Assembly: GCA_934254915.1 (NCBI GenBank) | Contig: CAKQMH010000003.1 | Span: 25,793-89,792 of the forward strand | Length of the DNA: 64,000 nucleotides | Direction: 5' to 3' | DNA from: an uncultured Alphaproteobacteria bacterium | Lineage (GTDB): Bacteria > Pseudomonadota > Alphaproteobacteria > RF32 > CAG-239 | Part shown: piece after piece, positions 1 through 19,625 of the stretch | How positions within the stretch are numbered: position 1 is the stretch's first letter | Layout: every line of letters begins with the position of its first letter | Notes under the pieces: generated by a model | Told to the model about the DNA's origin: nothing | The model's database searches: none | The model's input: the letters and a program-made list of their open reading frames with translations, nothing else | Made by a program: the position numbers and the translations under genes

Positions 1-400
1 ATAAATTTCTAATACTGGTTATTTGGTTTATATCCATATTTTTATCATCAACATCACCTCTTTTTTGTATCCTATTATAAATAGTTTCAGGGGCAGCATC
101 CAATAAAACAACTCTACCGCCTCGTTTATGTAGCATTTGCAATAATTCTGAAAAATCTTGATCGGAAAGGCGAGAATATCCTCTTTTTAAAGGCCCATAA
201 ACCATTTCAGATATAAATGAACGATCTAAAACAATATTATCTCCGTAATCTTTTGATAATATTCTTTGATATTTCTCTTTTATTGATAGATGAGAATCGT
301 AATTAAAATGCAGCGATTTGTATCCTCGATGAATAAGTAAATTTGCTAAAGTTGTTTTGCCAACACCATCACATCCCTCTAATATAATAAAGTCACTCAT
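1..400 (-). CDS. Thymidylate kinase-like dNMP kinase, N-terminal part (gene continues past the left window edge)
   Basis: Hand translation of the reverse strand gives MSDFIILEGCDGVGKTTLANLL...DRSFISEMVYGP... with no stop before position 1. EGCDGVGKTT is the Tmk-type P-loop. The ATG at 400-398 overlaps the TGA of the upstream gene (ATGA), indicating translational coupling. Not in the ORF track because it is open at the window edge. Confidence 0.55.
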   Translation of the reverse strand, partial: MSDFIILEGCDGVGKTTLANLLIHRGYKSLHFNYDSHLSIKEKYQRILSKDYGDNIVLDRSFISEMVYGPLKRGYSRLSDQDFSELLQMLHKRGGRVVLLDAAPETIYNRIQKRGDVDDKNMDINQITSIRNL

Positions 401-1179
401 CGTTGGCATCCTTTTATCATATTTAAGGGAATACCTGCTTTTAATAGAGGACATTCATTAGGCTTGTGGTTATTACAAAAGTGGCGTTTATAGTTAATCA
501 TAACTAAATGAACCCACCATGTTAAAGGTTTATCTTTGGGTAGTTTTATGTTTTTATCATACCCTAGTTTTGTTGCTATTTCCAACCAGTCGTGAGATTT
601 TGTAAAATCTTCTAATTGCGCTCGAACTGTTTCATGAGCAATAGCATTTTTTCCTGTTTTATAACCCAAACAAGGAGCTAGCATATCTTTCATACCACTA
701 TCAACAGGCATAACTCCACAGTAATATCCCTTTGCATATAAAACACAACATTGTCCAACTTTATACGAAGCTCCATCAACATTTTTTGCAATATCTGCAA
801 TCATTTCTAAATTAGATATGTTTTTAATATCCTTAAATTTTAAATTATTATCTATATAGCGACTCATACTTCTGACAAACTTTATTCTTGTATCAGGTAA
901 TCCTAAAGGCCTCAGCATTACTTTCAAATCGTCGTCTGATGTTTCTTTTATTTCTTCATAAGAGTGCATTAAAAAATTATTGATAGTCTTAATGTAACTG
1001 CCTAGCATTCGAAAAGATACTCTCGTACTTAAACCAGCAATAAGCATTTTCATGCGCCAGTCATCAACATCTTTAGGCCACCAAGGGTTGTTATCATGAG
1101 ATTTTATAACAGCATATTTTACTTCTGGTTGAGATGCCATAATCTCTATAGCTTTTATCTGTTCATCTTTACGCATCAC
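397..1179 (-). CDS. HhH-GPD superfamily (endonuclease III-like) base-excision glycosylase fold protein
   Basis: 260 aa. The segment ...IADIAKNVDGASYKVGQCCVLYAKGYYCGVMPVDSGMKDML resembles the helix-hairpin-helix plus Gly/Pro-Asp motif of Nth/MutY-type enzymes, with the Asp in PVDSG. The C-terminal Cys-rich tail (C-x7-C...C) is not the canonical EndoIII FeS loop. AT-rich codon usage. Confidence 0.45.
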   Translation of the reverse strand: MMRKDEQIKAIEIMASQPEVKYAVIKSHDNNPWWPKDVDDWRMKMLIAGLSTRVSFRMLGSYIKTINNFLMHSYEEIKETSDDDLKVMLRPLGLPDTRIKFVRSMSRYIDNNLKFKDIKNISNLEMIADIAKNVDGASYKVGQCCVLYAKGYYCGVMPVDSGMKDMLAPCLGYKTGKNAIAHETVRAQLEDFTKSHDWLEIATKLGYDKNIKLPKDKPLTWWVHLVMINYKRHFCNNHKPNECPLLKAGIPLNMIKGCQR

Positions 1180-2693
1180 TAGTTTCCTTTAATAATCTCA
1201 CCTTTTAATAATTTAGGTTCAACTGTATCTAATATTTGTATGCTATAATTATCATAAGGAGTTAGTTTTTTATTTTCAATCATAACTTTTATAGAGCATG
1301 TTCCTAAAGCTCTTAGATAAGATGCTCCATTTTCAAAAACCACTTCTCTAAATGATTTCAATTGTCTACCAATGGGGTAAACTCGTTTTTGCATCGGAAT
1401 GACAAAATTTGTCATGATATCATTTTTACATCTAGAGTAGTACTCAATGTCTTCTTTAATTTGAGAAGATATTACACCTTCAGCAGGTGTCATGTATCGA
1501 TAAAATAACCTGTGTGTTTGTAGTTGGTTTTGATAAATTCTATTCAAAAATTCCATATTAATTTCATGTGTTTTTTCTGTTTGTCCGGGCAATCCATGCA
1601 TTAAATTAATTCCTGGTAAAAATTTTGGGAAACCCTTTGGGCCAATTTCGGCACCATATTCATTTATTATTTCAATAGCATTTATTATTTTATCAGCACT
1701 ACCATAGATGTGTGTAGCTTTTCGAACACTATCATCAAACGATTCTATTCCAAAAGGAGCAACATTACCATCGGTGCAATTTTCAACAACTAATTTAACA
1801 AATTCTCGTCCATGAGGCTCAACAACACTATTCATGTTTACATTATCAATATGTAATGTTTGAATATCTGTTCCAATTTCTCTTATTCCATAAAGTAGTT
1901 TCCTTAGTTTTTCTATAGAATTATATTGATAATGGAAGAAATTGGGCTGTCTTCCTAACCTAAAATGTCTTACTCCACTTTTATAAAGAGCGGTTATTTG
2001 TTTTACTATTGAAATCGGTTCTCTATACGATGGACGAATGTGCCTTTTAGCTTCTATACAATAACTACAGGTTGGAGTGTTGCAACCTGTTCCTGTTTCA
2101 ATTTCAGCAAGAATGGGATAATTTAATTGTTCAATTATATGAACTGGTTGGCTAGAAATTTTATCTAACAATTCATAATTCGGTAATAAAAAATTACCAG
2201 TGGTAGAATTTTCTAATACAAAACGATAAGTGTTTCCTATACATACGGTATCAATGATTTTTGCCAAATGAGAACTTTGGTATGCTGAACAGACATTATT
2301 TTCAATTCCTAAAACATAAAAAAGTATTTTTTTTGCCTTTGTATTATTTAGAAAAGTATAAACTTCTTCAATAGAAGGTGGCTCACAAGAAAAATACTTA
2401 TATTCAACAAAACATCCCATGATAATATAAATTGTTTCGGCATTTTTAATAATGTCTAATGCGTAAGGTGCATTTTTTGTCTTATTTAGAATACGAATGT
2501 TAGTATTTTCTGCTTCTTTTTCACCATTGGCAAACCTTAAGTCATCGATAGTAAGGTAAGAAAATGCTTCATTTTTATAACTTAATGCTTGTGATAAATG
2601 TATTTGATGAGTACCTAAATAAGGTCGAGCACCATATCCAGATGGTTCATCTGTATAACAATCTAAGATTATAGTTTTATTATATTTTGTCAT
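1179..2693 (-). CDS. Radical SAM superfamily enzyme with non-canonical CX4CX2C motif and an N-terminal extra domain of about 190 aa
   Basis: 504 aa. The reverse complement of 2041-2100 encodes ETGTGCNTPTCSYCIEAKRH, a three-Cys cluster in the glycine-rich context typical of radical SAM cores. A G-rich SAM-binding-like region follows (VAPFGIESFDD...). Start and stop overlap the neighbouring genes. Confidence 0.6.
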   Translation of the reverse strand: MTKYNKTIILDCYTDEPSGYGARPYLGTHQIHLSQALSYKNEAFSYLTIDDLRFANGEKEAENTNIRILNKTKNAPYALDIIKNAETIYIIMGCFVEYKYFSCEPPSIEEVYTFLNNTKAKKILFYVLGIENNVCSAYQSSHLAKIIDTVCIGNTYRFVLENSTTGNFLLPNYELLDKISSQPVHIIEQLNYPILAEIETGTGCNTPTCSYCIEAKRHIRPSYREPISIVKQITALYKSGVRHFRLGRQPNFFHYQYNSIEKLRKLLYGIREIGTDIQTLHIDNVNMNSVVEPHGREFVKLVVENCTDGNVAPFGIESFDDSVRKATHIYGSADKIINAIEIINEYGAEIGPKGFPKFLPGINLMHGLPGQTEKTHEINMEFLNRIYQNQLQTHRLFYRYMTPAEGVISSQIKEDIEYYSRCKNDIMTNFVIPMQKRVYPIGRQLKSFREVVFENGASYLRALGTCSIKVMIENKKLTPYDNYSIQILDTVEPKLLKGEIIKGN

Positions 2694-3417
2694 GATATTC
2701 TCTATAATAGATTAAAGCTTTATTAAATTCATTTTGTAAAAATGATAACGAGTTAGAGCAGTTTGTTTGATTCTTTATATATACAATAGGTATCTCTGTC
2801 TCTTTAATACTAATAATGTTATCTGGCACATTTAAAACATCCTTCTTATAAACCGTATTCATTGTTTTTTCAGAAACTAAATGTCCTCCATTTTTATATC
2901 TATTTAAATTACGCTCTTTCCTTATTGCTAAAGGGGCATCAATATCTATTATTAGTGAGTTTTTTAATAAAAATGATGGCACAGTCTGGCATAAATAATT
3001 AAAAGATATAGGATATACATCCTGATCATTTATATCAAAAAAATGGTTATATTTAGGATCACTACCTCTGGAAAATTCAACAACAGTGTAGTCAGAATTT
3101 ATCTGTTTACCTAAAATTGTTAACACGATATTCCAAACAATGGGATTATCAATTAAGTATCCCCCCTGATTATTAGGGTGGCTATAAAAACAAGGAACTT
3201 CTTGATCATAGTACATATCTATACCATTCTCTTTTACAAATTTCCAAAACTCTTTCAGTTTATGTTGATGCAATAATTTATCTGCGGTAAATATTTTATA
3301 TAAAGGAACAGCATCATCTAATACAGAATACTCTGGATGTAAACTGCATATGGCTTGACCCATTGATGATTTACCGCTGCAAGCTGGACCTATTATAAAT
3401 ATTAAATTGGGTTTCAT
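2680..3417 (-). CDS. P-loop NTPase / nucleotide or nucleoside kinase-like protein
   Basis: 245 aa with Walker A IIGPACSGKSS at the N-terminus. Size and layout resemble small-molecule (nucleotide or nucleoside) kinases. Overlaps the radical SAM gene by 14 nt. Confidence 0.5.
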   Translation of the reverse strand: MKPNLIFIIGPACSGKSSMGQAICSLHPEYSVLDDAVPLYKIFTADKLLHQHKLKEFWKFVKENGIDMYYDQEVPCFYSHPNNQGGYLIDNPIVWNIVLTILGKQINSDYTVVEFSRGSDPKYNHFFDINDQDVYPISFNYLCQTVPSFLLKNSLIIDIDAPLAIRKERNLNRYKNGGHLVSEKTMNTVYKKDVLNVPDNIISIKETEIPIVYIKNQTNCSNSLSFLQNEFNKALIYYREYHDKI

Positions 3418-4252
3418 CTTTTTTATCCATCTTCTGTATTGTATTTTTGGCTCTGCTAATTTCTATAGATTTATTTCTTAAATGGAGGTTCCCATAATCT
3501 TGAACAGATATACTGGCCATAGCTAATGCTTGGTAAACTGCTTCATTTAAATTTTTGCCATTGAACGAAGACAAAAAGCTTCCGAGGAATGTATCTCCAG
3601 CACCAACTGTGCTAACAACATCATCTGTTTTGATTGTTGCAAAGTATTTTCTTTCGTTTCCTTTTCGGTAGAAAACTCCTGTCATATCAGTAGTAAATAT
3701 TGATAAACTTTGAGGTAATGAATCAATTAAGCCATTACGTTGCATAATTATAAATTCATTGTCATTACAAAATAAAAAATCAGCCTTCTTAAGGCAAGTT
3801 GATAATTCCGGTAAAAAATCTTTTATACTAGACCACATAACATCTAAAGAGTAATATTGAGCATGAATCTTGTTCATAGCATCAATAAAAGGAACGCCCT
3901 TTCTGCATGATATATGCAAATAGTCCGCAGTTAATTGTTCCGGTATAATTATAGGTGCATAAACATTATTTATTAAGGAAATCTTATTATTTATCTCATC
4001 AATATTAAACGAATTCGTTTTATTTTCATATTTTTGTATGTGTCGTGTATCTATACTTAATTTATCCAATGCATCTATAGGAAAGTCATAACCTATGCTT
4101 GATATTATAGATATTTCTTTATTTCCGGATAAACTTCCTGCAATAGCTGCATTCACAGCACTTCCTCCGATTACATCCTTCGTTCCTTGATGAGTTATGA
4201 TACGGTCAATCGAAGAATTGCCACAGAAAATTAATTTATCTTTTATGCTCAT
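3371..4252 (-). CDS. PfkB-family carbohydrate/nucleoside kinase (ribokinase-like)
   Basis: 293 aa. N-terminal GG motif (VIGGSAVNAAIAGS) and C-terminal anion-hole motif (VVSTVGAGDTFLGSF), both PfkB signatures. Confidence 0.7.
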   Translation of the reverse strand: MSIKDKLIFCGNSSIDRIITHQGTKDVIGGSAVNAAIAGSLSGNKEISIISSIGYDFPIDALDKLSIDTRHIQKYENKTNSFNIDEINNKISLINNVYAPIIIPEQLTADYLHISCRKGVPFIDAMNKIHAQYYSLDVMWSSIKDFLPELSTCLKKADFLFCNDNEFIIMQRNGLIDSLPQSLSIFTTDMTGVFYRKGNERKYFATIKTDDVVSTVGAGDTFLGSFLSSFNGKNLNEAVYQALAMASISVQDYGNLHLRNKSIEISRAKNTIQKMDKKDETQFNIYNRSSLQR

Positions 4253-4832
4253 TTATATACCAATTAACAAATTTTTGGATGCTACCATTAGCACCGGCAC
4301 GTCCATAATACTCAGAAACTTCTTGTTCAGAAAGCTCACAAAGATTTTTATTATATTCTTTTAAATATATTATTTTCCATAACTCAGACCATGCATATGG
4401 TGATTGAATATCAATTTTTTCTTTTGATATTTCAAAATCTCCACCCTCGCGTTCAAATTGAAACAAGATACCGTCTTTATTAACGAATGTAGTGACACTT
4501 ATGAATTTAGCGGTTCTGTTTTCAATGCCTTGCATTAATTTTAAAATACCATCAGCACCTAATGTTTTCAAAACATATTTGGTATAAACTCCCGGAAAAC
4601 CTTTTAATTCAAATACGGAAAATCCACCATCTTCTACTAAAACGGGTTCTTTTAATATCTCAAAAGCTTTTAGCGCCTTATATTTTGAAACCTCTTGAAC
4701 AGTATCAAATTGAGGTTCCATAATATCTAAGTTTTGCGCACATATCTGCACATCAATATTATTAACTTTTAAACTATTTTCTAGTGATTTTATTTTTCCT
4801 TTATTGGACGTAATAAAATTAATCTTATTCAC
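4236..4832 (-). CDS. Ham1/ITPase-family non-canonical NTP pyrophosphatase (RdgB/Maf-like)
   Basis: The ORF-track ORF runs 4236..4937, but the family motifs start at VNKINFITSNKGKIKSLE, followed by VLVEDGGFSVFELKGFPGVYTKY. A GTG at 4832-4830 is preceded by GGAGG (complement of 4839-4843), giving a ~199 aa product typical of ITPases. Confidence 0.7.
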   Translation of the reverse strand: MNKINFITSNKGKIKSLENSLKVNNIDVQICAQNLDIMEPQFDTVQEVSKYKALKAFEILKEPVLVEDGGFSVFELKGFPGVYTKYVLKTLGADGILKLMQGIENRTAKFISVTTFVNKDGILFQFEREGGDFEISKEKIDIQSPYAWSELWKIIYLKEYNKNLCELSEQEVSEYYGRAGANGSIQKFVNWYINEHKR

Positions 4833-5175
4833 GCATAACCTCCACAGATACTGCCATAATAGAATATTTTTCGATATCTGAATTTGAAAACCATTGCTTG
4901 ATATTAAAATATGCAGAATTGTAATCAGATTCGCCAAGATCTTTCAAAGAAAATTTACGTATTAATGAATTAAGATCTCTGGATATTCTTATATTCTTAA
5001 CCAAAAGAGAGAGACTCTCATTATTTTTATTTAATAAATTGAAACTATCATTAATGGATAAACCAGAGCGTTTCTCATCGCACAAATAAAACTTTACGTT
5101 TTTTTTGCTCTTTTTAATTTTTTCAAATGTTATATCATCAACAATAGAAGAAAATTTGCACATTAAATCTCCCAA
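4825..5175 (-). CDS. Hypothetical small protein (first gene of the island operon)
   Basis: 116-aa AT-rich ORF. Its 3' end contains the SD of the ITPase gene. No recognisable motifs. Confidence 0.3.
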   Translation of the reverse strand: MGDLMCKFSSIVDDITFEKIKKSKKNVKFYLCDEKRSGLSINDSFNLLNKNNESLSLLVKNIRISRDLNSLIRKFSLKDLGESDYNSAYFNIKQWFSNSDIEKYSIMAVSVEVMRE

Positions 5176-5452
5176 ACTTTTTCTACATGATATTATTAAA
5201 AATAAAAAAAATCAATATTTTTCAAAAGTTGACACAAGTAGTTCAGCATTACTTCAATAAAAAGGTATGTATGCGATAGCTTTAGTAAATTTTAGTAAGT
5301 ATAATAAGGTGTTTGTTGAACATTCAGACTATACCAAGTATGTTGAAATCAAAGACGACAGCAAATTTATGGATGTTAACTTCCCGAGCGATGTTGAAAA
5401 AGTTTCCAAGAAAAATAAGTGAGTTAACAACCAAGGCCGTATCAGAGCCGCA

Positions 5453-5911
5453 TTACTTCTCTAAAGTTATATATTCGGGCGGAATAATACCGCCTTTGAT
5501 GACAACCAGATAATAAGGTACAACGGCAAACCGCAAGCCAAGTTTTTCATCACAAACCGACCAATCCACCGGAGAAGTATCAATATCGCTGATTGACGCT
5601 AATTTTATCAGACGTTCATCAATATCATGCGGAAGATCTTTATCTAAATTCGGACGGATTGCCGGACTGACATAAACTGCTTCAATCAGGCCGTCTTTTT
5701 GTAAAGCCATTAAATCAATAGAAAATAAATCAGCATTATCAATAAAAGGCTTGAACATATTGATGCTTTTGTCTGTCCATTGTATCGGTTCTGAAAAAAC
5801 CGCGAATGGCACGGCTGCGGCCGTTAAAACAAGATTCCATATCAGAATTGTGGGGCAAAAGCACTGTCCAAGATTATAAAAAGGATATATAATCGGTTCG
5901 CCAAAACACAA
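5453..5911 (-). CDS. Hypothetical protein (possibly a gene fragment)
   Basis: 152-aa ORF in a short patch of core-like GC between the AT-rich operon and the IS remnant. Hydrophobic N-terminus. No family recognised. Confidence 0.25.
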   Translation of the reverse strand: MCFGEPIIYPFYNLGQCFCPTILIWNLVLTAAAVPFAVFSEPIQWTDKSINMFKPFIDNADLFSIDLMALQKDGLIEAVYVSPAIRPNLDKDLPHDIDERLIKLASISDIDTSPVDWSVCDEKLGLRFAVVPYYLVVIKGGIIPPEYITLEK

Positions 5912-5989
5912 TTAGAGGGACTGCTGATGCCTATAGAGAAGTATATAACAGGGAATGAAAAAATCAAGATAAAATAGATAGATGAATGG

Positions 5990-6260
5990 AAAAAGTTAGT
6001 TTTAGAATGTGAGGACAAGACGGAGTATTATTGTCCATATTGCGGAAGTTATGAGTTAAGGTGTAAGGTCACATTTATCAAGAACATCAAAGGGATAAAG
6101 CTAGGCAACAAGGCCACAATTTTAAGGTTTAAGACCCATAAATACAAGTGTTTGGATTGATGAGCATTACTTAAGCAAGAAATACTTTCCTAATGCAATG
6201 ATAGTAAGTGACCGTTTCCACGTAATAAAATTGATATTAGAGAGTTTTATGTGCTTAACT
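5990..6260 (+). mobile_element. ISL3-family transposase remnant (internally deleted pseudogene)
   Basis: Frame translation gives ...EWKKLVLECEDKTEYYCPYCGSYELRCKVTFIKNIKGIKLGNKATILRFKTHKYKCLD* (ISL3 N-terminal zinc-finger region) and then ...FPNAMIVSDRFHVIKLILESF (the ISL3 DDE-domain DRFH motif). There are stops on both sides and most of the gene is missing. Confidence 0.6.
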
Positions 6261-6389
6261 TATTTTTACGAAAAAACAAACGAACTGATGACAGATTTTT
6301 TATAATTTTTTTTACTCTGCCTCCAACTTTTACGATGAGCCCCTAAAGATACAAAAAAGTCTCCGTATTTCTACGAAGACTTTTCTTAT

Positions 6390-6465
6390 TGGTGAGCTCG
6401 GGCGGGTTCGAACCGCCGACCCTTTGATTAAAAGTCAAATGCTCTACCGACTGAGCTACGAGCCC
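6390..6465 (-). tRNA. tRNA-Lys (anticodon UUU), CCA encoded
   Basis: The reverse complement reads GGGCTCGTAGCTCAGTCGGTAGAGCATTTGACTTTTAATCAAAGGGTCGGCGGTTCGAACCCGCCCGAGCTCACCA. It has a 7-bp acceptor stem with one G-U pair, a GGTTCGAA T-loop and a CTTTTAA anticodon loop. Its 3' end faces the AT-rich island. Confidence 0.9.
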
Positions 6466-7027: not shown

Positions 7028-8704
7028 TTGCTGATGATTATAAAGCTGTTTATCTTTCTGCTGGCATTATCTTTCTTAGCTTTGGCATTTGCGCCCAAAC
7101 GCGGCCTGCGCTTGTGGTCATCGCTCTTTGCGCTTGCGGCGGTTATACTTGCCGTGTGGGTGGCCGGAAATCAAACCTCCGGCATTTTTGCTTCCTATGT
7201 GCATCCCTGGTTGAGCTATGGCAAACTGAAAATATCGTTTAATCTGACCGCCGATTCTTTAGGCCTTAAAACCTTAAGTGCCGTTTTGGCGCTGGCAGCC
7301 TTATTGATTTATTACAATACAATAGCCGCGGTTGACAATTTCCGCCCTCGTCTTAACGGTATTCTGCTGTTGAGCGTTGCCGGGTTTATGCTCTTGTTTT
7401 CCGCTCATGATTTTGTTCAACTTATGATCGGCAGCTGCCTTTATACGGTGCTTGGATTTTATTTGTTGGATGTGGTTGCCGGCAAACGAAAATATTTGTT
7501 TTATAATTTTATCGGTGAAATGGCGCTGTTTACGGCTTTGGCCGTGGTTTACGGCAGTGTCGACAGCGTTAATTTGCCGCAGGCATTGTCTCGCTATCAG
7601 GATTACGGGCAGCATCGCGATTTGGTTACCCTGTTGGTGTCGTTGGCGCTGGTCATAAAATCCGGACTATTCCCGTTCCAAAATCAGTTTCAGGATAATC
7701 GCGGCTTGTCGTTTAGCCGGATTATTGCCGTTACCGCCATTTTAAATCCGCTGGCTTCCCTTGTGCTGCTGCTCAAACTGTCACCATTGCTGCATGCATC
7801 AGCATGGGGTGTTACGGCAATGACGGCGGTTTGTGTGCTTTCGGCACTGTGGGGCGGTGTCGGTATGTTGTTGATTGACAACCTTAAAGCTAAAGTACTT
7901 TACCTTAACCAGAATATTATTGCGTTTATGGCGGTACTGTTGCTGACCAATCCGGTGTCGTTTCCGATTCTTCTGACTATGGTTTTGCCGATAATGGTAA
8001 TTTTGGATTATTTGTGGAGCTTGGTTTATATTTCAGCTTCAAATGAAGTGTATGTTTCGCAAATGGGCGGTTTTGTTAAGTTCTTGAAACTTGATTTGCT
8101 GCTTTTGTGGGGCGGAATTTTAACCTTTGTGCGGATAGCCGCCAATCAGGAATGGTCGAACCTGAAATGGGCTTTGCTCTTTGTCATTACCGCTCTGGTT
8201 GGGTTAGCCCACATTTGCCGCCAAATATATTTTGGGGCGCATCATGCTGATGAACGGGTAGAGGCTTTGTTGCACAATGCTCCGATTCGCACCTGGTTGC
8301 CTCTGGTTGCGGCTATGGCCGTGTTGTGGTATGTTAACACCGCTCCGGCCGTTGACGGCTTCGTTTATGGCGGTGTAGGCTTGTTTGCGGTTGTTTTGCT
8401 GCTCAATCCATTTAAACGGTTAATGCACATGGCCGACAGCGAAATTCAAGATGCTGACGGGGTTGAACAACTGTTCCGGTTTAGTATTTTAATGCCGATA
8501 AAGCTGTTGGGACGAATTTTGTGGATTACCATTGACTTTTTGTTTATTGAACGCACGATTATCGGCTCGGTTTCAGCCTTGAATAATTTTATGGTTAATG
8601 CCTTGCACCGTATTCAAAATGCTGTCTGGCTCAATTATCTGCTGATGGTAGGCTTAGGTGCGGCAATAATGCTTTTTTACATAGGACGGAGTTATTATGA
8701 ATAG
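7028..8704 (+). CDS. nuoL: NADH-quinone oxidoreductase subunit L-like antiporter-type membrane subunit (short form)
   Basis: 558-aa polytopic membrane protein. The motif FVQLMIGSCLYTVLGFYLL...FYNFIGEMALF is loosely NuoL/MrpA-like. Position upstream of clear nuoM-nuoN. Confidence 0.55.
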   Translation: MLMIIKLFIFLLALSFLALAFAPKRGLRLWSSLFALAAVILAVWVAGNQTSGIFASYVHPWLSYGKLKISFNLTADSLGLKTLSAVLALAALLIYYNTIAAVDNFRPRLNGILLLSVAGFMLLFSAHDFVQLMIGSCLYTVLGFYLLDVVAGKRKYLFYNFIGEMALFTALAVVYGSVDSVNLPQALSRYQDYGQHRDLVTLLVSLALVIKSGLFPFQNQFQDNRGLSFSRIIAVTAILNPLASLVLLLKLSPLLHASAWGVTAMTAVCVLSALWGGVGMLLIDNLKAKVLYLNQNIIAFMAVLLLTNPVSFPILLTMVLPIMVILDYLWSLVYISASNEVYVSQMGGFVKFLKLDLLLLWGGILTFVRIAANQEWSNLKWALLFVITALVGLAHICRQIYFGAHHADERVEALLHNAPIRTWLPLVAAMAVLWYVNTAPAVDGFVYGGVGLFAVVLLLNPFKRLMHMADSEIQDADGVEQLFRFSILMPIKLLGRILWITIDFLFIERTIIGSVSALNNFMVNALHRIQNAVWLNYLLMVGLGAAIMLFYIGRSYYE

Positions 8705-10127
8705 TCCTTTTGCTTTATTATCTCTGATTGTGGCGATTCCGTTTTTAGGCTTGCTTTTTGTCCTTACGGCCAAAGGTGACGAGAACAATGGTCGACACAA
8801 TGCTTTCAATGTCTGCGTTTTTACTATTTTGGCCAACATCGTGATGCTGTTCCGCATTTTTATGCTGCTGGATGAAAATTCGCAGAAACTTCAGTTGTTG
8901 GAACATTTTGACTGGCTGAATGAACCGAATGTCAATATTCTGTTCGGGGTAGATACTTTTTCGCTGATTTTGATTTTGGCGGTGCATATCGCGGTTTTAA
9001 TCGGTTTGTCAGGTGTTAAAAACAACACTTTTAAGCAAAAATCCCTAATGGCATATACGTTGCTGTTTTTGAGTATGATTACCGGTCTTTTCGTGGCCGC
9101 GGATATTTTTTCTTTTTATATCTTTTTTGAGGCCATGTTGCTGCCGTTGTTTATGATTATCGGAATGTTCGGGGCTGTCCGCAAACAGGAGCTGATATAC
9201 CGTTTCTTTCTCTACAACCTGCTTGGTGCGTTGGTGTTGTTCAGCGCAACCATGCTGATTTATCATTTCCACGGTTCACTGACTTTGGAACAATTGGGCA
9301 AATTGCGGCTTAAAGGTTCGTTGGCATATTATATTTGGGGCGCGGTATTTTTATCTTTCCTGTCGCGTATTCCGATTTGGCCGTTTCACTATTGGATTTC
9401 ATCAATTAATGCCAACATTCGCAACCCATTGGTTTTTATAATCACCGTGCTGATGCCGTTGACATCGATTTATGGCTTTATTCGCTTCCTGCCGCTCAAG
9501 TTTTCGGCGGTTACGGATGTATATATAATTTGGGTAAGCATTATTGCCGTGATTACCATGCTTTTCATTGCTCTTATCGGGTTTATTAACAAAGACAGCC
9601 AGTATAAACTTTTCTCTTATGTCACGGTTTATTATCTGATGTATTTATTGAGCGCTTTTATGCATGATGTTCTGATTTTGCAAAATGTCGGTTTTTCGTT
9701 GCTTGGTTTTATGCTGATAGTTGCTTCACTGGAGGTCTTGTCCGGCTATATCGCGCAAAAGGAGAATGAATACGGAACAACCGGAACCGGATTTTTGTGC
9801 CGTGTACCGCGGTTGTCGTTTATCTATTCTTATTTAACTTTGGCGGCGGTCGGTATGCCGTTGTCGGCAATTTTCCTGCATAACTTTTTAATATTGTCAA
9901 AGCTGCTTTCTTCCAATATTAAAATGGGTATGGTTCTTATTGCTTCATTGGTTTTGGTCGGCGCGTCGCTGTTGCAGGAACTTTATCAGCACAAAGTTGA
10001 TAATCCCGAATGTCCGATTATCCGGCGGGATGATATTTCGCGGCGGATGTTTGTCTTTATGCTGTTTGTCGGCTTTGTTTTGTTAATGTCGTTTGTCAAA
10101 CCATTATGGTTTGTGATTAATGAATAG
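8697..10127 (+). CDS. nuoM: NADH-quinone oxidoreductase subunit M
   Basis: 476 aa. FYIFFEAMLLPLFMIIGMFG...RFFLYNLLGALVLF matches the conserved NuoM/ND4 core. Overlaps the upstream gene by 8 nt. Confidence 0.75.
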   Translation: MNSPFALLSLIVAIPFLGLLFVLTAKGDENNGRHNAFNVCVFTILANIVMLFRIFMLLDENSQKLQLLEHFDWLNEPNVNILFGVDTFSLILILAVHIAVLIGLSGVKNNTFKQKSLMAYTLLFLSMITGLFVAADIFSFYIFFEAMLLPLFMIIGMFGAVRKQELIYRFFLYNLLGALVLFSATMLIYHFHGSLTLEQLGKLRLKGSLAYYIWGAVFLSFLSRIPIWPFHYWISSINANIRNPLVFIITVLMPLTSIYGFIRFLPLKFSAVTDVYIIWVSIIAVITMLFIALIGFINKDSQYKLFSYVTVYYLMYLLSAFMHDVLILQNVGFSLLGFMLIVASLEVLSGYIAQKENEYGTTGTGFLCRVPRLSFIYSYLTLAAVGMPLSAIFLHNFLILSKLLSSNIKMGMVLIASLVLVGASLLQELYQHKVDNPECPIIRRDDISRRMFVFMLFVGFVLLMSFVKPLWFVINE

Positions 10128-10135
10128 GAGGCAAA

Positions 10136-11560
10136 ATGTTGCAAAATTGGTTTATAATGCTTCCTGAGCTGTTGTTGTTGAGTTATTTGCCGTTAGCCTG
10201 GTTAGTTAAAGTTTGCCGTTCGGGACAAACTTACAAAACCTTTTATACTCTAAGCAAATATTTTTTGTCGGCCGCTTTGGTCTTTAATATCATTTTTTAT
10301 AACAAAACGGTTTTTGCGTCGCTGTTGCTTAATACAGCCGCGGCATCTTTATTTAAGACAATTGTATATTTGGCGGCGCTGGTTTGGTTTTATTTGTCGT
10401 CGAAGTGGTTTTTGAACAAAAGCCGCTCCTCGTTCGGTTTTTATCAATTGGCGGTTTCGGGAGTGTTGATTCTGGAACTGCTGATATCATCGCATAACCT
10501 GATATTGACGGCAACACTGTTGACGTTAGGCTGCTTGTTGGTTTGGGCAATGCTTAATTTGCATTGGGATAAAAATGCGATTAAAGAAATTTCCGTTCTT
10601 TATGCTTTTTTTGCCGTAATTTTTCTGATTGCACTATGGATTGGCATCATAATGTTGGCTTATCACCGCTTTCCGATGGATTATGCGGCGGTAAGGGATT
10701 GTATCAATGATAAGACGCTTGACGAAGGCTGGCTTTATGTCGTTATGGGACTGACTTTGGCACCGGTTTTGTTTATGTTGGGATTAGCTCCGTTTCATTC
10801 TTGTCTGGTAGGTGTAATCCGCTCTTCAATCCTGCCGGTCAGTGGCTATTTAACCTTGGTCTTTCCGGTTTCGTTATTATGCGTCTTGCTCAATTTGGTA
10901 TCACAGGTCTGGAGCAACGCTTTGGCGGTTGTCAGTCCGTTATTGCTGGCTTTTGCCGTAATCTCGCTTGTTTTGGGGGCATTATCCGCCAATGGCGAGA
11001 AAAACCTGCGACAGCTGTTTGCCTTCAGCAGCATTTATCATTTGGGTTTTATGTTCTTTACGCTTGTCAGTTTTAATGCTAATTCATTGCTGAGCGCGTT
11101 TACCTATATTGTCATTTATTTATTGTCAATGTTGGGGATTTACACGGTCTTTTTAGGCTTAAAGAGCCGCGGTAATTATTTGACGGATGTCGATGATATT
11201 GACGGCCTGTCGTTATCCAAGCCCTATATTTCGGTCAGCTGGCTGATATTTATGGTTTCGCTCATCGGGTTGCCGCCCATGCTTGGTTTCTTGGGCCGAT
11301 TATCCGTAATCAATAATTTGGTCTTGGAGGAGCGTTGGGGTAGTGTAATATGTTTGTTATTGTCGCTTTTGTTTATTGCCAATGCTTATTTACAGCTGAT
11401 TCGCCACATCTATTTTACGCCCGTTGTTAAGTCGTTTGACCGTGCCGATAAAGCTATTTATTTGTGCTTGTTTGTCAATCTGCTGCTGGTTTTGATTTCG
11501 ACGCTCAATCCTGAATTTTGGCTGCGCAGTGCCGAACATATTTTGAAAGGAGCGTTTTAA
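10136..11560 (+). CDS. nuoN: NADH-quinone oxidoreductase subunit N
   Basis: 474 aa. ...LGALSANGEKNLRQLFAFSSIYHLGFMF matches the NuoN/ND2 motif. Confidence 0.7.
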   Translation: MLQNWFIMLPELLLLSYLPLAWLVKVCRSGQTYKTFYTLSKYFLSAALVFNIIFYNKTVFASLLLNTAAASLFKTIVYLAALVWFYLSSKWFLNKSRSSFGFYQLAVSGVLILELLISSHNLILTATLLTLGCLLVWAMLNLHWDKNAIKEISVLYAFFAVIFLIALWIGIIMLAYHRFPMDYAAVRDCINDKTLDEGWLYVVMGLTLAPVLFMLGLAPFHSCLVGVIRSSILPVSGYLTLVFPVSLLCVLLNLVSQVWSNALAVVSPLLLAFAVISLVLGALSANGEKNLRQLFAFSSIYHLGFMFFTLVSFNANSLLSAFTYIVIYLLSMLGIYTVFLGLKSRGNYLTDVDDIDGLSLSKPYISVSWLIFMVSLIGLPPMLGFLGRLSVINNLVLEERWGSVICLLLSLLFIANAYLQLIRHIYFTPVVKSFDRADKAIYLCLFVNLLLVLISTLNPEFWLRSAEHILKGAF

Positions 11561-11561
11561 T

Positions 11562-12320
11562 ATGCCTGAAATCGGAAAATGGCAGTGGTTTGATTATGAT
11601 GATGCGGACAGCACTAACGATACCGCTTTAGCGTTAAGCCAAAATCCGCCGGCAGAATATTTTGTCGTAACCGCCAAACGTCAACACAACGGACGCGGCC
11701 GCCGCGGCCGCAGTTGGATAAGTCAGGAAGGCAATTTATTTATGAGCCTTGGATTGCCTTTTGATATAAATGATATTAATGCGTTGGTCTTCATTACGGC
11801 TTTGAGTCTGTTTGAAGCTGTAGCTTCGCAATCGCCGCAGGGTTGCTTACAACTCAAGTGGCCTAATGATGTTTTATTTAATAATCAAAAAATTTCAGGA
11901 ATTTTACTTGAAAAAGGTTTTCAAAATTATATAATCGTCGGCATTGGTGTAAATATTTTGACATCGCCGAGCCTGAATGACCAGCTGTTATATCGTTCGG
12001 CAAGTCTGCGCAGTGCCGGTATCAACATTAATCGTGTTGATTTGATGTTGCTTTTCCTTTCCTGTTTTGACCGTAACTTATCATTGTGGCGTGAGCAAGG
12101 ATTTGCGCCCATTCGTATCAAGTGGCTGCAAAATGTTAAAGGTTTGGGTGAGGATATTGTGGTAAATAACGAAAAAAACTCGCGCCGCGGTGTGTTCGCC
12201 GGGTTGGATGAAAACGGCGCGTTGTTGTTGGATGAAAATGGCAAAATAAGCAAAATTTGGGCCGGTGATATTTTTTATCAAACCGACCATAAACAAAGAG
12301 ATAAAGTTACTGATGAATAA
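11562..12320 (+). CDS. birA: Biotin--[acetyl-CoA-carboxylase] ligase (group I, no DNA-binding domain)
   Basis: 252 aa with the KRQHNGRGRRGRSWISQEGNLFMS biotin-ligase signature (GRGRxGRxW). Confidence 0.85.
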   Translation: MPEIGKWQWFDYDDADSTNDTALALSQNPPAEYFVVTAKRQHNGRGRRGRSWISQEGNLFMSLGLPFDINDINALVFITALSLFEAVASQSPQGCLQLKWPNDVLFNNQKISGILLEKGFQNYIIVGIGVNILTSPSLNDQLLYRSASLRSAGININRVDLMLLFLSCFDRNLSLWREQGFAPIRIKWLQNVKGLGEDIVVNNEKNSRRGVFAGLDENGALLLDENGKISKIWAGDIFYQTDHKQRDKVTDE

Positions 12321-14100
12321 AGAAGAAAATCAATTGGAATTTAGTTTTGACCCTGTACCCGCACAAACCGATAATAAGGCCGCAAGCGGTAATGTTGCCG
12401 GCTTAAATCGGGAAGGAATATATTTTGTTGCTTTAGGCGGTGCCGAAAAAGTCGGTATGAATATGTATGCTTACATTGTCGATGGTAAAATAATCGTGGT
12501 CGATGCCGGTTATGACTTTTTGAATGATGACTTTCCCGGTATAGATTTAGGCCTGGCCGATGCTTCATTTTTAGAAAACTATCAGGACTGCATTGAGGCT
12601 TTGTTTATTACTCACTCGCATGAAGACCATTTTGGTGCTATTGCTCACATTTGGCCGCGGCTGCAATGTCCGGTTTATGCCACGGATTTTACTTTGGGAC
12701 ATATTGTTCAACGTCTGGCGGAATATAAATTGGACAAGTTGGTCGATTTACATTCGGTAAACGATAACCCGATTGTCAAGTTGCCGAATTTTACGGTTGA
12801 ATATGTTCCGGTTGCCCATTCGCTGCCCGAAAATTCGGCTTTGGTGATTCATACCCGATACGGCACGATTTTTCATGCCACGGATTGGCGTTTTGATGAT
12901 CAGCAGATTTCGTTTATGAAAACCGACTATCAACGTTTGGAAGAGCTTGGACAGGAAGGGATTGATCTTTATGTCGGCGATTCTATCCAAATGGGGCATA
13001 ACAGTGCTTCACAACCCAGTGAAAAAGAAATCAGGGATAATCTGATTACGATGATGCCGCGGTTCAAAAACACGCTGGTTGCTACTTGTTTTGCCTCTAA
13101 TATCGCCCGTATGGAGAGCTTAATTCTGGCGGCTCACGCGGCCGGACGTACGCCGGTTATTGCCGGTATGAGCCTGATTCAAAATATGAAAATCGCCAAA
13201 GACTGCGGCTTTTTGCCTGATTTGCCGCCTTATGCCGAGGCTAAACAGGCTATGGATATTCCGCTTGATAAAATGTTGTATATCTGTGCCGGTTCGCAAG
13301 GCAATTATCGCAGCGGTCTGACGCGTATTGTCAATGGCGAAAATAAGGATATCAAACTTGGTAAAGGCGATGCGATTATCTTTTCTTCGCAGATTATTCC
13401 CGGAAACGAGGAAAAAATTGAGCGTATGCAGGAAAAATTGCGAGATGCCGGGGTCGAGGTCATTTCATGTGAAGAATATCCGGTTCATACTTCCGGACAT
13501 GGTACACGTTCTGATGTGGCCAAAATGTTTTCTATTCTGAAGCCGCATACGGTTATTCCGGTGCATGGAGACAAACGTTGTATTCGGGAGCAAAAACGTT
13601 TTGCCTTGGAACATGGCATCGAAAACGTAATTGTTGCCCGCGATGGCGATGTTGTGCGGATATATAATCATAAAGCCGAAATTGTAAGCCAAGTTCCGAC
13701 GGATGAATTGGGTGTTGACCGTAAACAGGTTATCAGCCTTGGCTCGCAGGTCATCAAAAATCGCCGTCGTATTGCCTATAACTGCAGCTTGTATATCAGT
13801 GTGGTATTAAATGAGGATTGGTCTGTTGCCGATTTACAAATTTCCTCGTTGGATATTTTGGATGAAGCCTCGTTCAAGGTTTTGGCTGATGACATTAAAA
13901 GCGAAATGCTGAAAACCATTCCGGCCGAAATTGTGAAACTCAATTACCGTATTCCGCAAATCAAAGAATATATTCAGGCCAAGATTAGAAAAATGGTTTA
14001 TAAGGCAACGGATATCAAACCGGTTACAACCATGCATTTTTTCAAACAAGGAATGATTGCGGCTGCCGACAGCGGCGAACCGGAAACCGTTGAAGCTTAG
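12312..14100 (+). CDS. rnj: Ribonuclease J
   Basis: ITHSHEDHFGAI (metallo-beta-lactamase HxHxDH), a beta-CASP region and VHTSGHG. The probable start MNKEENQ at 12312 overlaps the birA stop (ORF track 12265..14100). Confidence 0.85.
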
Positions 14101-14765
14101 ATTTCAAAAGTCATACCTTGACGCAACACTCCGCCCAGTCCCGATTTGTGGGCAATTTGGCAGAGCGTTTCATAATCTTTGGGCAGGTAGTGCGATACAA
14201 AAGTTTTAGCTTTTATTTCCGGCTTGGCGGTGCTTAACTCATCAATTCCGACAATTATCCCGCCGCCTTTAAGGCTGACATCGTGGATAATCATCTTCGC
14301 TTCGGCCGCGGCTGCGGAATCTAAAATCGAAATCGCACTGTCGCCGCTGTACAAAAGAGTGTGATTAATGAATAACGCATAACAATCCATACCTTTGGCA
14401 TGCGGCACTGTAAAACAATCAACGTGTATATCATCGGGCAGGGGCATAACCTTCTCCTGCCAGCCGTTTCCGGAGTGCAACTCCAAAAAGCGGCGGCAAT
14501 CAGTTCCGCCCAATGCGGTTTTAAGTCCCAAAATTTTGTACCGATAATCCAACAGATTAACCACCGATCCGCAATGATCCTGATGCAAATGACTGATTAG
14601 AACCGTGTCGATTTTGTCGGCATAGCCTTTTTGGCGCAATTCCTGATAAACACTGAAACCGCAATCCAGCAAAATTCCACTGTTATTGTTTTGCCATAAG
14701 ATAAAAGAGTTGGTTACTCCTTGCGCCGCAAATGCGGCATTAGTGCCTAAAACTTCCAGTCGCAT
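14097..14765 (-). CDS. MBL-fold metallo-hydrolase
   Basis: 222 aa with the HLHQDH motif and VLGTNAAF at the N-terminus. Confidence 0.55.
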   Translation of the reverse strand: MRLEVLGTNAAFAAQGVTNSFILWQNNNSGILLDCGFSVYQELRQKGYADKIDTVLISHLHQDHCGSVVNLLDYRYKILGLKTALGGTDCRRFLELHSGNGWQEKVMPLPDDIHVDCFTVPHAKGMDCYALFINHTLLYSGDSAISILDSAAAAEAKMIIHDVSLKGGGIIVGIDELSTAKPEIKAKTFVSHYLPKDYETLCQIAHKSGLGGVLRQGMTFEI

Positions 14766-14769
14766 TAAC

Positions 14770-16197
14770 TTAAGCCTCCTGCTTTTGCGGCAAATAAATA
14801 GTAAAAGTCGTTCCGTTGCAAATTGTTGAGTTTACCGTCAAATTGCCGCCGTGGCGGATAATAATTTGCTTGGCAATGGCTAAACCTAAACCCGTTCCTT
14901 TAATATTCAAGTCCTTATGCTCTTGCATACGGTAAAATCTTTCGGTCAGGCGGGCTAAATTTTCGGGCGCGATTTTCGGACCTTTGTTATTGATGGCAAT
15001 TGCCACGGCAGGACCTTTGGCAACCTTAAAACTTTTAGATGTTGGAATTTTCTCACAATTTTGCAGTGTTATGCCGACTTCGGTATCTGAAAGCCCGTAT
15101 TTTATGGCATTATCCGCAAGATTCTGTATAAGTTGCCGGATTTGTGCCGTATCGGCTGTAATTTCAGGAATATTATCTTGGGCATCGACTTTAATTTTTA
15201 TGTGCCGTTCGGCAGCGCGCAAAGCCAAAGCTTCGGCCACATCTTCGGCAATATCCAAAACATCGACTTTTTCATCAGGTTTATGATCTTGATTAAGCTC
15301 GATTTTCGACAACGACAACAGGTTTTCAATCAAAGCCGACATATAATCAGCTTGTTCTGCCATAATGGCTAAAAACTTTTCGCGCGCTTGTTCATCATCT
15401 TTGGCACTGCTTTGCAGAGTTTCAATCACCCCGCTGATAACCGCCAGAGGCGTGCGCAGTTCATGGCTGGCATTAGCCACGAAATCCGACTGCATTTTTT
15501 CGACTTTCATGGCTTTGGTCATATCATAAATTGAAATTACCGCTACGGCCTTGCCTTTTGACAACCAGGGCAGTTGTTTAATATGGGCATATAATTTTTG
15601 TGCCTGCGGTTTTTGAAGATAGAAAATCAGATTTTCTGACTTGCTTTCTTTGTTCAAAACCTTGCTTACCGCATTGATGAAGTTGTTTGAGGCAAAAAGA
15701 TTTTCGACGTTTTTGTTGGTAATATTTTTTCCAAAAGTATTGCGAGCCGAAAGGTTAGCGCCCAAAATATTGCCGGCGCGATCAATAACCATAATCGGAT
15801 CAGGCAGACTGTCTAAAACCGCCGTATCGGAAATGGTTTGGGCTTCCAATCGGTCGGTTTTTTGCGCCCAAAAACGGTGCATGGCGTTAACTGCCTCTAC
15901 AATATCTTTCGCATCTTTTTCCGAAAGCGTCATCATTTTTTCATCAAAATCGCCGCCGGTCGACAAAGACGTGACATAGCGTTTGATTTGTTGTAATTCA
16001 AAAGTCAGCGGGAATAAAATTAAAATATTAAGCAGCGTAACCGCTCCTAAAGAAATTACCGCCAGCGTCGGGTTGACCAGACGAAATGCGGCTAAAACAA
16101 TAAAAACCAATGCCGTCGGGCAAGTCAAGAGCAAAACCCGTTCGGTAAATTTGGCATTTTTTTCAATTCCCAAAGATTCGCGCGCTTTTTCAAACAT
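14770..16197 (-). CDS. Sensor histidine kinase (TM, PAS, HisKA, HATPase; PhoR-like)
   Basis: SHELRTPLAVISG (H-box) and GTGLGLAIAKQIIIRHGG (G2 box). PAS-like DSLPDPIMVIDRAGNIL. N-terminal TM helices. Confidence 0.8.
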   Translation of the reverse strand: MFEKARESLGIEKNAKFTERVLLLTCPTALVFIVLAAFRLVNPTLAVISLGAVTLLNILILFPLTFELQQIKRYVTSLSTGGDFDEKMMTLSEKDAKDIVEAVNAMHRFWAQKTDRLEAQTISDTAVLDSLPDPIMVIDRAGNILGANLSARNTFGKNITNKNVENLFASNNFINAVSKVLNKESKSENLIFYLQKPQAQKLYAHIKQLPWLSKGKAVAVISIYDMTKAMKVEKMQSDFVANASHELRTPLAVISGVIETLQSSAKDDEQAREKFLAIMAEQADYMSALIENLLSLSKIELNQDHKPDEKVDVLDIAEDVAEALALRAAERHIKIKVDAQDNIPEITADTAQIRQLIQNLADNAIKYGLSDTEVGITLQNCEKIPTSKSFKVAKGPAVAIAINNKGPKIAPENLARLTERFYRMQEHKDLNIKGTGLGLAIAKQIIIRHGGNLTVNSTICNGTTFTIYLPQKQEA

Positions 16198-16295
16198 AAT
16201 TTTCTTGTCCCATATCTTTTAAATAGGTCTAGACTAAGATTATAAATAGAGTATTATGAAACAAGTTTAAATTTAATAAATTTTTTGAGTAAAAA

Positions 16296-18992: not shown

Positions 18993-19090
18993 TTTTGTTG
19001 TAAATGTATAAAATAAGCAAAATCAACCAGTTAATAAGTGGTATTATAATACCACTGTCTAATTATTTGTAAAATAATGAAATTTTGTTG

Positions 19091-19118
19091 TTGACTTTAG
19101 TTATCTTTCCTGTATATT
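19091..19118 (+). promoter_or_regulatory. Candidate sigma70 promoter for rplM-rpsI
   Basis: TTGACT at 19091-19096, a 16-nt spacer, then TATATT at 19113-19118, about 40 nt upstream of the rplM start. Confidence 0.35.
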
Positions 19119-19158
19119 CACAGCCGAATAATAACCTTCTTCAAAAAGAGAGAAAACT

Positions 19159-19623: not shown

Positions 19624-19625
19624 CC

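Follow-up and report, generated by a model that had tools for sequence, protein, structure and literature searches.

What joins a radical S-adenosylmethionine (SAM) enzyme, kinases of three families, a nucleoside triphosphate (NTP) pyrophosphatase and a protein with a DNA-glycosylase fold into a single operon? The question is raised by the left end of a 64,000-nucleotide stretch of DNA from an uncultured alphaproteobacterium (contig CAKQMH010000003.1, positions 25,793 to 89,792), here called the window. The operon, referred to below as the cassette, is 6.6 kb long and contains eight genes on the minus strand, of which the eighth and the rest of the seventh are located to the left of the window. 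They were recovered from a 108-kb ENA contig (L001), found by exact look-up of the radical SAM protein and used to extend the sequence leftwards; L001 1–12693 equals window 12693–1 at 100% identity. The original prediction, made from the window alone, regarded the genes as one functional, horizontally acquired, nucleotide-centred unit, and this is supported by shared partners in about 50 loci, by gene fusions and by replacements. As to its role, we favour, with confidence not quite reaching even, a self-contained and horizontally transferred module that would make or remodel a non-canonical 2'-deoxynucleotide and govern the relation of this nucleotide to DNA.

Distribution and mobility of the cassette

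The radical SAM family has 132 matches in 185,579 species genomes, around 50 of them with cassette partners. The original prediction suggested looking for the same gene order elsewhere; the same partners accompany the radical SAM gene at about 50 bacterial loci, which represent at least eight lineages. Partners of the PfkB, P-loop, HhH-GPD, dNK-like and Amdase-like types are present beside the radical SAM gene in 46–50 of 84 loci, all among the 55 bacterial ones; in the archaeal loci (DPANN and Methanosarcinales) they adjoin it in none of 28. The conserved core is formed by the radical SAM enzyme, the isomerase-like (Amdase-like) protein, the HhH-GPD protein, the dNK-like kinase and the PfkB kinase. 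Variable parts are Ham1 or MazG, a nucleotidase of the HAD, NT5C or HD type, and the orphan P-loop kinase. Gut and rumen Alphaproteobacteria contain all eight genes in identical order, with radical SAM identities of 75–92%. Further hosts are RF39-type Bacilli, "Tenericutes", Saccharibacteria, Dojkabacteria, a Patescibacteria single-cell genome, Chloroflexi, Bacteroidota, Gammaproteobacteria, Kordiimonas and Rickettsiales, together with four linear plasmids of Streptomyces. Labels for PfkB, P-loop and Ham1 proteins across the loci, where reading frames overlap or are fused, were assigned by sequence reading and Pfam.

The partners are fused in several ways. The HhH-GPD protein is joined to the dNK-like kinase at eight loci (L013, L014, L017, L059, L088, L089, L091 and L092); one of these (L089) is a minimal cassette of radical SAM enzyme, Amdase-like protein, HhH-GPD+dNK fusion and PfkB, located directly after the genes for NrdR and ribonucleotide reductase. 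In Bacilli and Dojkabacteria the P-loop kinase follows PfkB in a 530-residue fusion, and it also occurs free; in Alphaproteobacteria the dNK-like kinase is fused to a HAD phosphatase. Like-for-like replacements by non-orthologous proteins, which retain the activity, are also observed. Ham1, present in Alphaproteobacteria, is exchanged for MazG in Bacilli, Candidate Phyla Radiation (CPR) bacteria and Streptomyces, and the HAD domain fused to dNK for a separate NT5C-like gene upstream, with five loci also encoding a YfbR-like HD 5'-deoxynucleotidase. Streptomyces cassettes gain a nucleoside 2-deoxyribosyltransferase domain, and in the Chloroflexi locus (L013) a divergent gene of the thymidylate-synthase family (14580–15326) overlaps the end of the cassette PfkB gene. 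That these genes serve one pathway is shown by their fusions, overlapping frames and replacements.

In the plasmid of the cultured Streptomyces sp. NBC_01456 (L085, record 12293–18742) the cassette is located near the end of the linear molecule, in the order radical SAM enzyme, Amdase-like protein, HhH-GPD protein, PfkB, a 317-residue protein with the nucleoside 2-deoxyribosyltransferase domain, dNK-like kinase, MazG and a Methyltransf_19 fragment; proteins with TPR and SEC-C domains are encoded upstream. Since cultured Streptomyces NBC strains carry the cassette on plasmids, the question of its function is directly testable. A variant found in 278 index blocks is abundant among human gut metagenomes, and in its representatives (L094 and L095, 4742–7392) genes for a WYL-domain regulator and a 661-residue PfkB-containing protein lie immediately upstream. 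The archaeal radical SAM homologues (L086, from a Natronorubrum bangense plasmid, and L056–L084) stand alone and have 29–36% identity; the Natronorubrum protein, of 575 residues, adjoins a separate TRAM-domain protein. No assigned function was found for this archaeal clade, which bears the JGI name "radical SAM with C-terminal HhH" and which we take to be COG1031.

The case for horizontal acquisition is strengthened by base composition, by a flanking repeat and by unrelated flanks in relatives. The AT-rich block described earlier is evident in the window (GC content 0.27–0.32 at 1–5500 versus 0.40–0.48 past 6500), and in the extended contig the low GC content (0.26–0.33) spans L001 7500–14100, exactly the eight cassette genes, with both flanks at 0.40–0.47. 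Across loci, the cassette has a GC content more than 3 points under that of its flanks in 18 of 41 cases and more than 3 points over it in none. Alphaproteobacterial relatives align only over L001 7461/7540–14075, with 66–91% nucleotide identity, and their flanks are unrelated; since they share the cassette alone, a vertically inherited salvage operon was rejected. The island is bracketed by a 120-nucleotide direct repeat, one copy of which is in the window and the second 1463–1582 nucleotides to the left of its start, the two being 98% identical. The repeat corresponds to the end of a MobA-like gene, whose 3' end therefore appears to have been duplicated upon insertion. Flanking repeats were found in none of five other alphaproteobacterial loci.

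The island had been placed between the 3' end of tRNA-Lys and an ISL3 transposase remnant and assigned to the tRNA-associated type. Acquisition stands; the tRNA-Lys site does not. The actual order is cassette, repeat, orphan open reading frame (ORF), ISL3 remnant and tRNA-Lys, which places the ISL3 remnant between the cassette and the tRNA. Leftward extension, suggested as a way to the far attachment site, revealed the MobA-derived bracket and no tRNA-derived repeat at the far end of the island, and no integrase or recombinase is encoded within or beside it. A tRNA-associated integrative island is thereby ruled out. A phage origin was likewise discarded, the cassette being absent from GenBank phages (tblastn) and from IMG/VR (pattern scan).

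Recurrence near integrases or defence genes, which had also been suggested, is found in part. Defence-like neighbours are present at some loci: CBASS (L013), a type I restriction-modification (R-M) system with a WYL regulator (L092), a WYL regulator (L094), and PLD and PemK proteins (L088). Others adjoin housekeeping or repair genes, among them nrdR and ribonucleotide reductase (L089) or Fpg, UvrD and a 5'-3' exonuclease (L093), and the present island lacks an integrase. When 150 neighbour proteins were scanned with PADLOC and Pfam, a few defence-type matches (AbiEii, SoFic, ThsA-like and DRT) and many housekeeping cross-hits were obtained. In L013 an IrrE/M78 peptidase gene and then a CBASS pair (SAVED effector and SMODS cyclase) follow the cassette at 15976–19641. 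In seven Bacilli loci a gene of 553–555 codons lies 2 kb downstream of the cassette (for example L036 17447–19114); read from its sequence, without a family search, as a large serine recombinase, it hints at an integrated element.

The cassette proteins

The radical SAM enzyme has the three-domain plan of the methylthiotransferases, including their C-terminal TRAM barrel. Its AlphaFold2 model (pLDDT 89) has RimO, MtaB and MiaB as best Foldseek neighbours across all three domains; for RimO (PDB entry 4jc0) the E-value is 1.8e-17 and the TM-score on the target 0.72. The alignments to 4jc0, 7mjx and 9a6d cover the whole model, in which beta-strands are present at residues 444–503. A direct PDB search with the sequence gave marginal matches only. 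The family comprises 1387 clusters in the protein collection. The CX4CX2C motif noted earlier (CNTPTCSYC) is invariant in 83 homologues, and the only other cysteine conserved family-wide is C12, retained in 87–100% of the sequences of the bacterial and archaeal groups; C94 is conserved among the bacterial members and missing from all archaeal ones. Because only these cysteines are conserved, the three-cysteine auxiliary [4Fe-4S] site of the methylthiotransferases is absent. The best NCBIfam matches are MiaB-like but far under their cut-offs (TIGR01578, 31 versus 315 bits; TIGR00089, 19 versus 251 bits). Thus, although the architecture is that of MiaB, MtaB and RimO, the enzyme differs from them in having CX4CX2C rather than CX3CX2C, in lacking the auxiliary site and in falling far short of the curated cut-offs, and it was rejected as a member of that group.

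The original prediction likened the operon to prokaryotic viperin-type (pVip) systems, and taken as membership this fails. Scanned with PADLOC, the radical SAM protein matches no family, viperin or otherwise, at E <= 0.1. Viperins have about 300 residues and a CX3CX2C motif; the cassette enzyme has 504 residues in three domains, CX4CX2C and MiaB-like NCBIfam matches, and was rejected as a pVip. What the two share is the genetic linkage of a radical SAM enzyme to nucleotide kinases and a patchy, mobile distribution, but pVips have no partner or one, whereas the cassette has five or more obligatory ones. RaSEA, the archaeosine enzyme, was considered because of the archaeal relatives and discarded, there being no NCBIfam match to it at E <= 0.1.

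For the HhH-GPD protein the earlier fold assignment holds: the Pfam HhH-GPD match is below threshold (17 bits), and EndoIII and NTHL1 match it in structure much better than Qng1 does. It is a member of a compact family in its own right, with 337 clusters and invariant motifs (the N-terminal NHDNNxWWP, AGLSTR, GASYKVAQCC and PVDSGM). K140 in the HhH hairpin and D160, about 20 residues downstream, are invariant across the family. By motif comparison they presumably correspond to K249/D268 of OGG1 and K120/D138 of EndoIII, and we take GASYKVAQCC...PVDSGM to parallel GVGTKVADC...PVDVHM of OGG1; an alignment with 4ejy supports the lysine and aspartate comparison. The start of the Fe-S loop also resembles that of EndoIII, and a partial cysteine motif of this loop is present in most members, being incomplete or missing in some (L017, for example). 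When the family profile was compared by hhalign with a single EndoIII sequence, a weak test, the Fe-S-loop segment alone was aligned; direct PDB sequence searches gave marginal matches only. The cassette protein differs from EndoIII, NTHL1 and OGG1, and from Qng1/DUF2419, in forming a family of its own, marked by NHDNNxWWP, that is always embedded in the cassette and often fused to dNK.

Of the remaining proteins, the left-edge ORF, which begins MSDFIILEGCDGVGKTT, had been called a Tmk-like deoxynucleoside monophosphate (dNMP) kinase. Its N-terminus is Tmk/dNK-like, with dNK (39 bits) scoring above Tmk (31 bits), but the complete gene encodes a dNK/Tmk+HAD fusion of 384 residues. A stretch of 23–25 residues around its P-loop matches PDC-M51B and VakA in PADLOC; nothing else in the cassette does. 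The cassette was hence rejected as an anti-phage system known to PADLOC v2, no protein matching a model over its length. The P-loop kinase, in which a Walker A motif is indeed present, belongs to an orphan family matched by known families, also in the PDB sequence search, at this motif only. The Amdase-like protein has two cysteines (C78 and C176) that are invariant in 12 diverse members, as is characteristic of the Asp/Glu racemase–maleate isomerase superfamily, and its profile matches Pyrococcus 2dgd (4e-21) and maleate cis-trans isomerase 4fq7 (8e-21) in the PDB. The family of the small first-gene product, found at 11 loci and in alphaproteobacterial cassettes only, has a profile matching Pyrococcus PH0355 (2z0t, 1.6e-5) and PF0455 (1s04), which we take to be ASCH-domain (PUA-like) structures. 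From one of the family alignments (A6), two sequences that turned out to be PfkB were removed.

A proposed pathway and its alternatives

The presence of deoxy-type families (dNK, NT5C, YfbR-like, nucleoside 2-deoxyribosyltransferase and the thymidylate-synthase homologue), together with NTP pyrophosphatases, kinases and nucleotidases, points to free 2'-deoxynucleosides and deoxynucleotides as intermediates, while the TRAM, HhH and ASCH modules, like the hallmarks of a glycosylase, would also allow for a step on DNA. In the pathway that we favour, Ham1 or MazG and a nucleotidase (HAD, NT5C or HD) would lower a (deoxy)nucleotide to the monophosphate or nucleoside level. The radical SAM enzyme, shaped like a methylthiotransferase without the sulfur-donor cluster, could then carry out radical C-H functionalisation of the base or the sugar, and the two-cysteine, maleate-isomerase-like enzyme might isomerise or epimerise the product, or a carboxylate-bearing group on it. 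The dNK-like, PfkB and orphan P-loop kinases would re-phosphorylate or activate what results. The OGG1/EndoIII-like protein would handle the N-glycosidic bond of the modified residue, either on DNA, installing or policing the residue, or on a mononucleotide like Qng1. The product might end up as a mark on DNA or serve as an antimetabolite against viruses or bacteria.

Several points weigh against this pathway. Every catalytic step in it is inferred from fold or family, and the placement of K140 and D160 comes from motif comparison, the hhalign comparison with EndoIII covering only the Fe-S-loop region. The TRAM, HhH and ASCH modules would suit action on polymeric DNA or RNA no less than on free nucleotides. 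An enzyme that could supply a functional group is not obvious in the core, the thymidylate-synthase homologue being present at one locus only, and there is no clear rationale for a kinase and a phosphatase in one protein. Defence genes are neighbours at some loci only, others being among housekeeping or DNA-repair genes.

The same enzymes may instead form a factory for a toxic nucleoside or nucleotide analogue with self-protection, for anti-phage defence or interbacterial competition, which we consider unlikely. A chain terminator or genotoxic deoxynucleotide would be the product of the radical SAM and isomerase-like enzymes together with the kinases, and Ham1/MazG, the nucleotidases and the DNA glycosylase would shield the nucleotide pool and DNA of the producer from it. 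Precedents are the viperins with their kinases, and OxsA/OxsB in oxetanocin synthesis, where a radical SAM enzyme acts on deoxynucleotide phosphates alongside a phosphohydrolase; the cassette shares that combination, but its enzymes are of other families and no homology was detected. The house-cleaning enzymes (Ham1/MazG and NT5C/HD/HAD) and the canonical-looking DNA glycosylase speak for such a factory, and the adjoining CBASS, type I R-M, WYL and PLD/PemK genes (L013, L092, L094 and L088), the location of Streptomyces copies near linear-plasmid ends and the patchy distribution driven by horizontal gene transfer (HGT) also agree with it. However, for a resistance gene it is unusual to be part of the invariant core and to be joined to a kinase, as the glycosylase is; the defence neighbours are inconsistent between loci, and the cassette proteins match no PADLOC model beyond a P-loop. 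That the cassette degrades or salvages a modified (deoxy)nucleoside of exogenous origin appears decidedly improbable. Here the nucleoside would be phosphorylated to the monophosphate by a kinase and split at its glycosidic bond by the HhH-GPD protein, on the pattern of the PsuK/PsuG and Qng1 pathways, and the radical SAM and isomerase-like enzymes would render the liberated base or sugar metabolically usable. PsuK and PsuG are a modified-nucleoside kinase and a nucleotide glycosidase, so that a PfkB kinase is paired with a glycosidic-bond enzyme in both cases, although the families differ and no homology was detected. The frequent occurrence of the cassette in reduced-genome, host-associated organisms (RF39-type Bacilli, CPR bacteria and gut Alphaproteobacteria), the abundance of one variant in the human gut and the location of some loci among housekeeping genes would suit salvage. 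Yet no transporter is part of the cassette, catabolism would not need as many as three kinases plus an NTP pyrophosphatase, the structure of the HhH-GPD protein is fitted much better by EndoIII and NTHL1 than by Qng1, and the cassette is rare (132 matches, about 50 with partners) and strongly HGT-patterned.

A post-replicative hypermodification of DNA bases in cells, analogous to that of thymidine in phages, would be quite unlikely on present evidence. The phage pathways (M6, ViI and SP10) use the P-loop kinase 5-HMUDK, an aGPT-Pplase, a radical SAM isomerase and a pyridoxal phosphate (PLP)-dependent decarboxylase (PMC8989533, PMC5889632). By analogy, the P-loop kinase of the cassette would attach phosphate to a substituent of a DNA base; after flipping this base, the HhH-fold enzyme would replace the phosphate, and the radical SAM and isomerase-like enzymes would shape the group so attached. 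The enzyme classes run parallel (P-loop kinase, HhH glycosylase-like protein, radical SAM enzyme and an enzyme for amino-acid-like groups; PMC8989533), kinase+HhH-fold fusions are found in both systems, and TRAM, HhH and ASCH are nucleic-acid-binding modules. The M6 cluster also contains dNMP-level enzymes, a thymidylate-synthase homologue and an HD hydrolase (gp58 and gp59), and a thymidylate-synthase-family gene is present in the L013 operon. The proteins themselves are nevertheless unrelated to gp51, gp55 and gp54 by sequence or profile. The HhH-GPD family has no Pfam aGPT-Pplase match, its profile gave hhalign probabilities of 0.4% and 0.2% against single M6 gp51 and gp55 sequences (again a weak test), and among the viral structures of BFVD the amino-acid:DNA transferase/Pplase1 is a marginal match (E ~2–4); it was rejected as a phage aGPT-Pplase. 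The profile of the P-loop kinase (A7) aligns with M6 gp54 (5-HMUDK) over 34 columns, the P-loop only, and a 5-hydroxymethyldeoxyuridine DNA kinase was rejected because the likeness stops at Walker A. Furthermore, the phage radical SAM isomerase is SPL-like and the cassette enzyme MiaB/RimO-shaped, the phage enzyme for amino-acid-like groups is of the PLP type and the cassette isomerase has the two-cysteine Asp/Glu-racemase fold, and the cassette is cellular, with additional PfkB and dNK kinases. Most loci lack a source of hydroxymethylated bases, and the PfkB, dNK, NTP pyrophosphatase and nucleotidase genes indicate free nucleotides. The cassette is also absent from both phage collections, and membership in this known system, as drawn upon in the original prediction, does not hold. 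Finally, that the radical SAM protein is merely a methylthiotransferase relative modifying tRNA, rRNA or protein, with unrelated neighbours, seems barely credible: its closest structures are RimO, MtaB and MiaB, it has the TRAM-like barrel and its archaeal homologues stand alone, but the same partners accompany it across phyla with fusions and overlapping frames, the three auxiliary-cluster cysteines are absent, and it reaches 31 bits against the NCBIfam MiaB-like-B cut-off of 315.

There is a substantial chance that the chemistry of the cassette is new. The radical SAM, HhH-GPD and P-loop families match no curated family above its cut-off, and full-text searches of the literature gave no account of the cassette. 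A 2026 paper on defence prediction lists MazG and aGPT-Pplase among unvalidated candidate domains and mentions no radical SAM system. It is possible, if doubtful, that the cassette is a portable cellular pathway that installs a new hypermodified DNA base or makes a new class of deoxynucleotide antimetabolite derived by radical SAM chemistry; as part of the same doubtful proposal, either outcome would call for new chemistry from a methylthiotransferase-shaped radical SAM enzyme, and the OGG1/EndoIII-like enzyme would have taken on a new task, at the nucleotide level or in installation. If the product is a new DNA base or antiviral deoxynucleotide, chemistry of the hypermodification or viperin type would pass from phages and single enzymes to a multi-enzyme cellular pathway that can be transferred. 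This would also give a first function to a widespread radical SAM family, including its stand-alone archaeal clade, and a new use to the EndoIII/OGG1 fold. Through the variant that is common in human gut metagenomes, phage-host dynamics, the sequencing and restriction behaviour of gut taxa or nucleoside-analogue biology could then be affected.

Gene coordinates and flanks of the island

The coordinates of the cassette genes and flanking features are collected in Table 1. The seven minus-strand ORFs originally described for positions 1–5175 agree with the ORF list, and the Ham1, PfkB and radical SAM assignments were confirmed by Pfam and NCBIfam (for radical SAM, Pfam PF04055, E = 4e-10). Every junction overlaps or abuts, including the ATGA at 397–400. 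The first gene is small, as described, but encodes 112 rather than 116 residues, and Ham1, rightly identified, probably starts at 4832 rather than at 4937. The operon does run past the left edge, for 1.4 kb more: beyond the dNK/Tmk+HAD gene follows the 209-residue Amdase/maleate-isomerase-like gene with the Asp/Glu-racemase fold, and then, in convergent orientation, the MobA-like NTP-transferase gene (L001). Scanning for promoters and terminators yielded no information in DNA so rich in A and T: promoter-like sites numbered 43, against 39 expected.

Table 1. Cassette genes and flanking features (window positions unless stated otherwise)
Feature	Position	Strand	Remarks
dNK/Tmk-like P-loop kinase+HAD phosphatase, N-terminal 133 codons	1..400	-	384 residues in all; 754 nucleotides beyond the left edge
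Full dNK/Tmk+HAD gene	L001 12294-13448		Pfam dNK 8e-10, Thymidylate_kin 3e-7, HAD 5e-11
EndoIII/OGG1-like HhH-GPD protein, 259-260 residues	397..1179	-	Invariant Lys140 and Asp160; C-terminal cysteine motif
Radical SAM enzyme, 504 residues, CX4CX2C	1179..2693	-	Flavodoxin-like N-terminus, radical SAM core, TRAM-like barrel
Orphan P-loop (Walker A) kinase-like protein, 245 residues	2680..3417	-	
PfkB/ribokinase-family kinase, 293 residues	3371..4252	-	Pfam PF00294, E = 2e-22
Ham1/ITPase-family NTP pyrophosphatase, 198 residues, GTG start	4236..4832	-	Pfam PF01725, E = 3e-22
ASCH/PUA-like small protein, 112 residues, first gene of the operon	4825..5163	-	phrog_19935, 1e-8
120-nucleotide direct repeat, window copy	5308..5427	.	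Last 38 codons and stop of the MobA-like NTP_transf_3 gene
Degenerate ISL3 transposase remnant	5927..6305	+	Zinc-ribbon N-terminus with in-frame stop, "DRFHV" fragment
tRNA-Lys(UUU)	6390..6465	-	Neighbour of the island, not its insertion site

To the right of the cassette, a 51-codon ORF on the plus strand (5267–5422) is an artefact of the 120-nucleotide duplication, its last 38 codons being the MobA-like carboxy-terminus. Between the repeat and the ISL3 remnant lies a minus-strand ORF of 152 codons (5453–5911) that is matched by nothing in Pfam, NCBIfam, PHROG or PADLOC; with a GC content of about 0.38 it is probably native, and in the inferred arrangement before the insertion it would be convergent with the MobA-like gene. 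The assignment of the ISL3 remnant includes a weak PF14690 match, on the copy at locus L002. Directly 3' of tRNA-Lys, a 15-bp stem followed by a T-run (6353–6386, minus strand) forms a plausible intrinsic terminator. On the plus strand from 7028 to 14100, three consecutive membrane-protein genes are present, two of them Proton_antipo_M (Mrp/Nuo-type) paralogues, and these are followed by a gene of the biotin/lipoate ligase family and an RNase J-like gene in ordinary chromosomal DNA with the GC content of the host.

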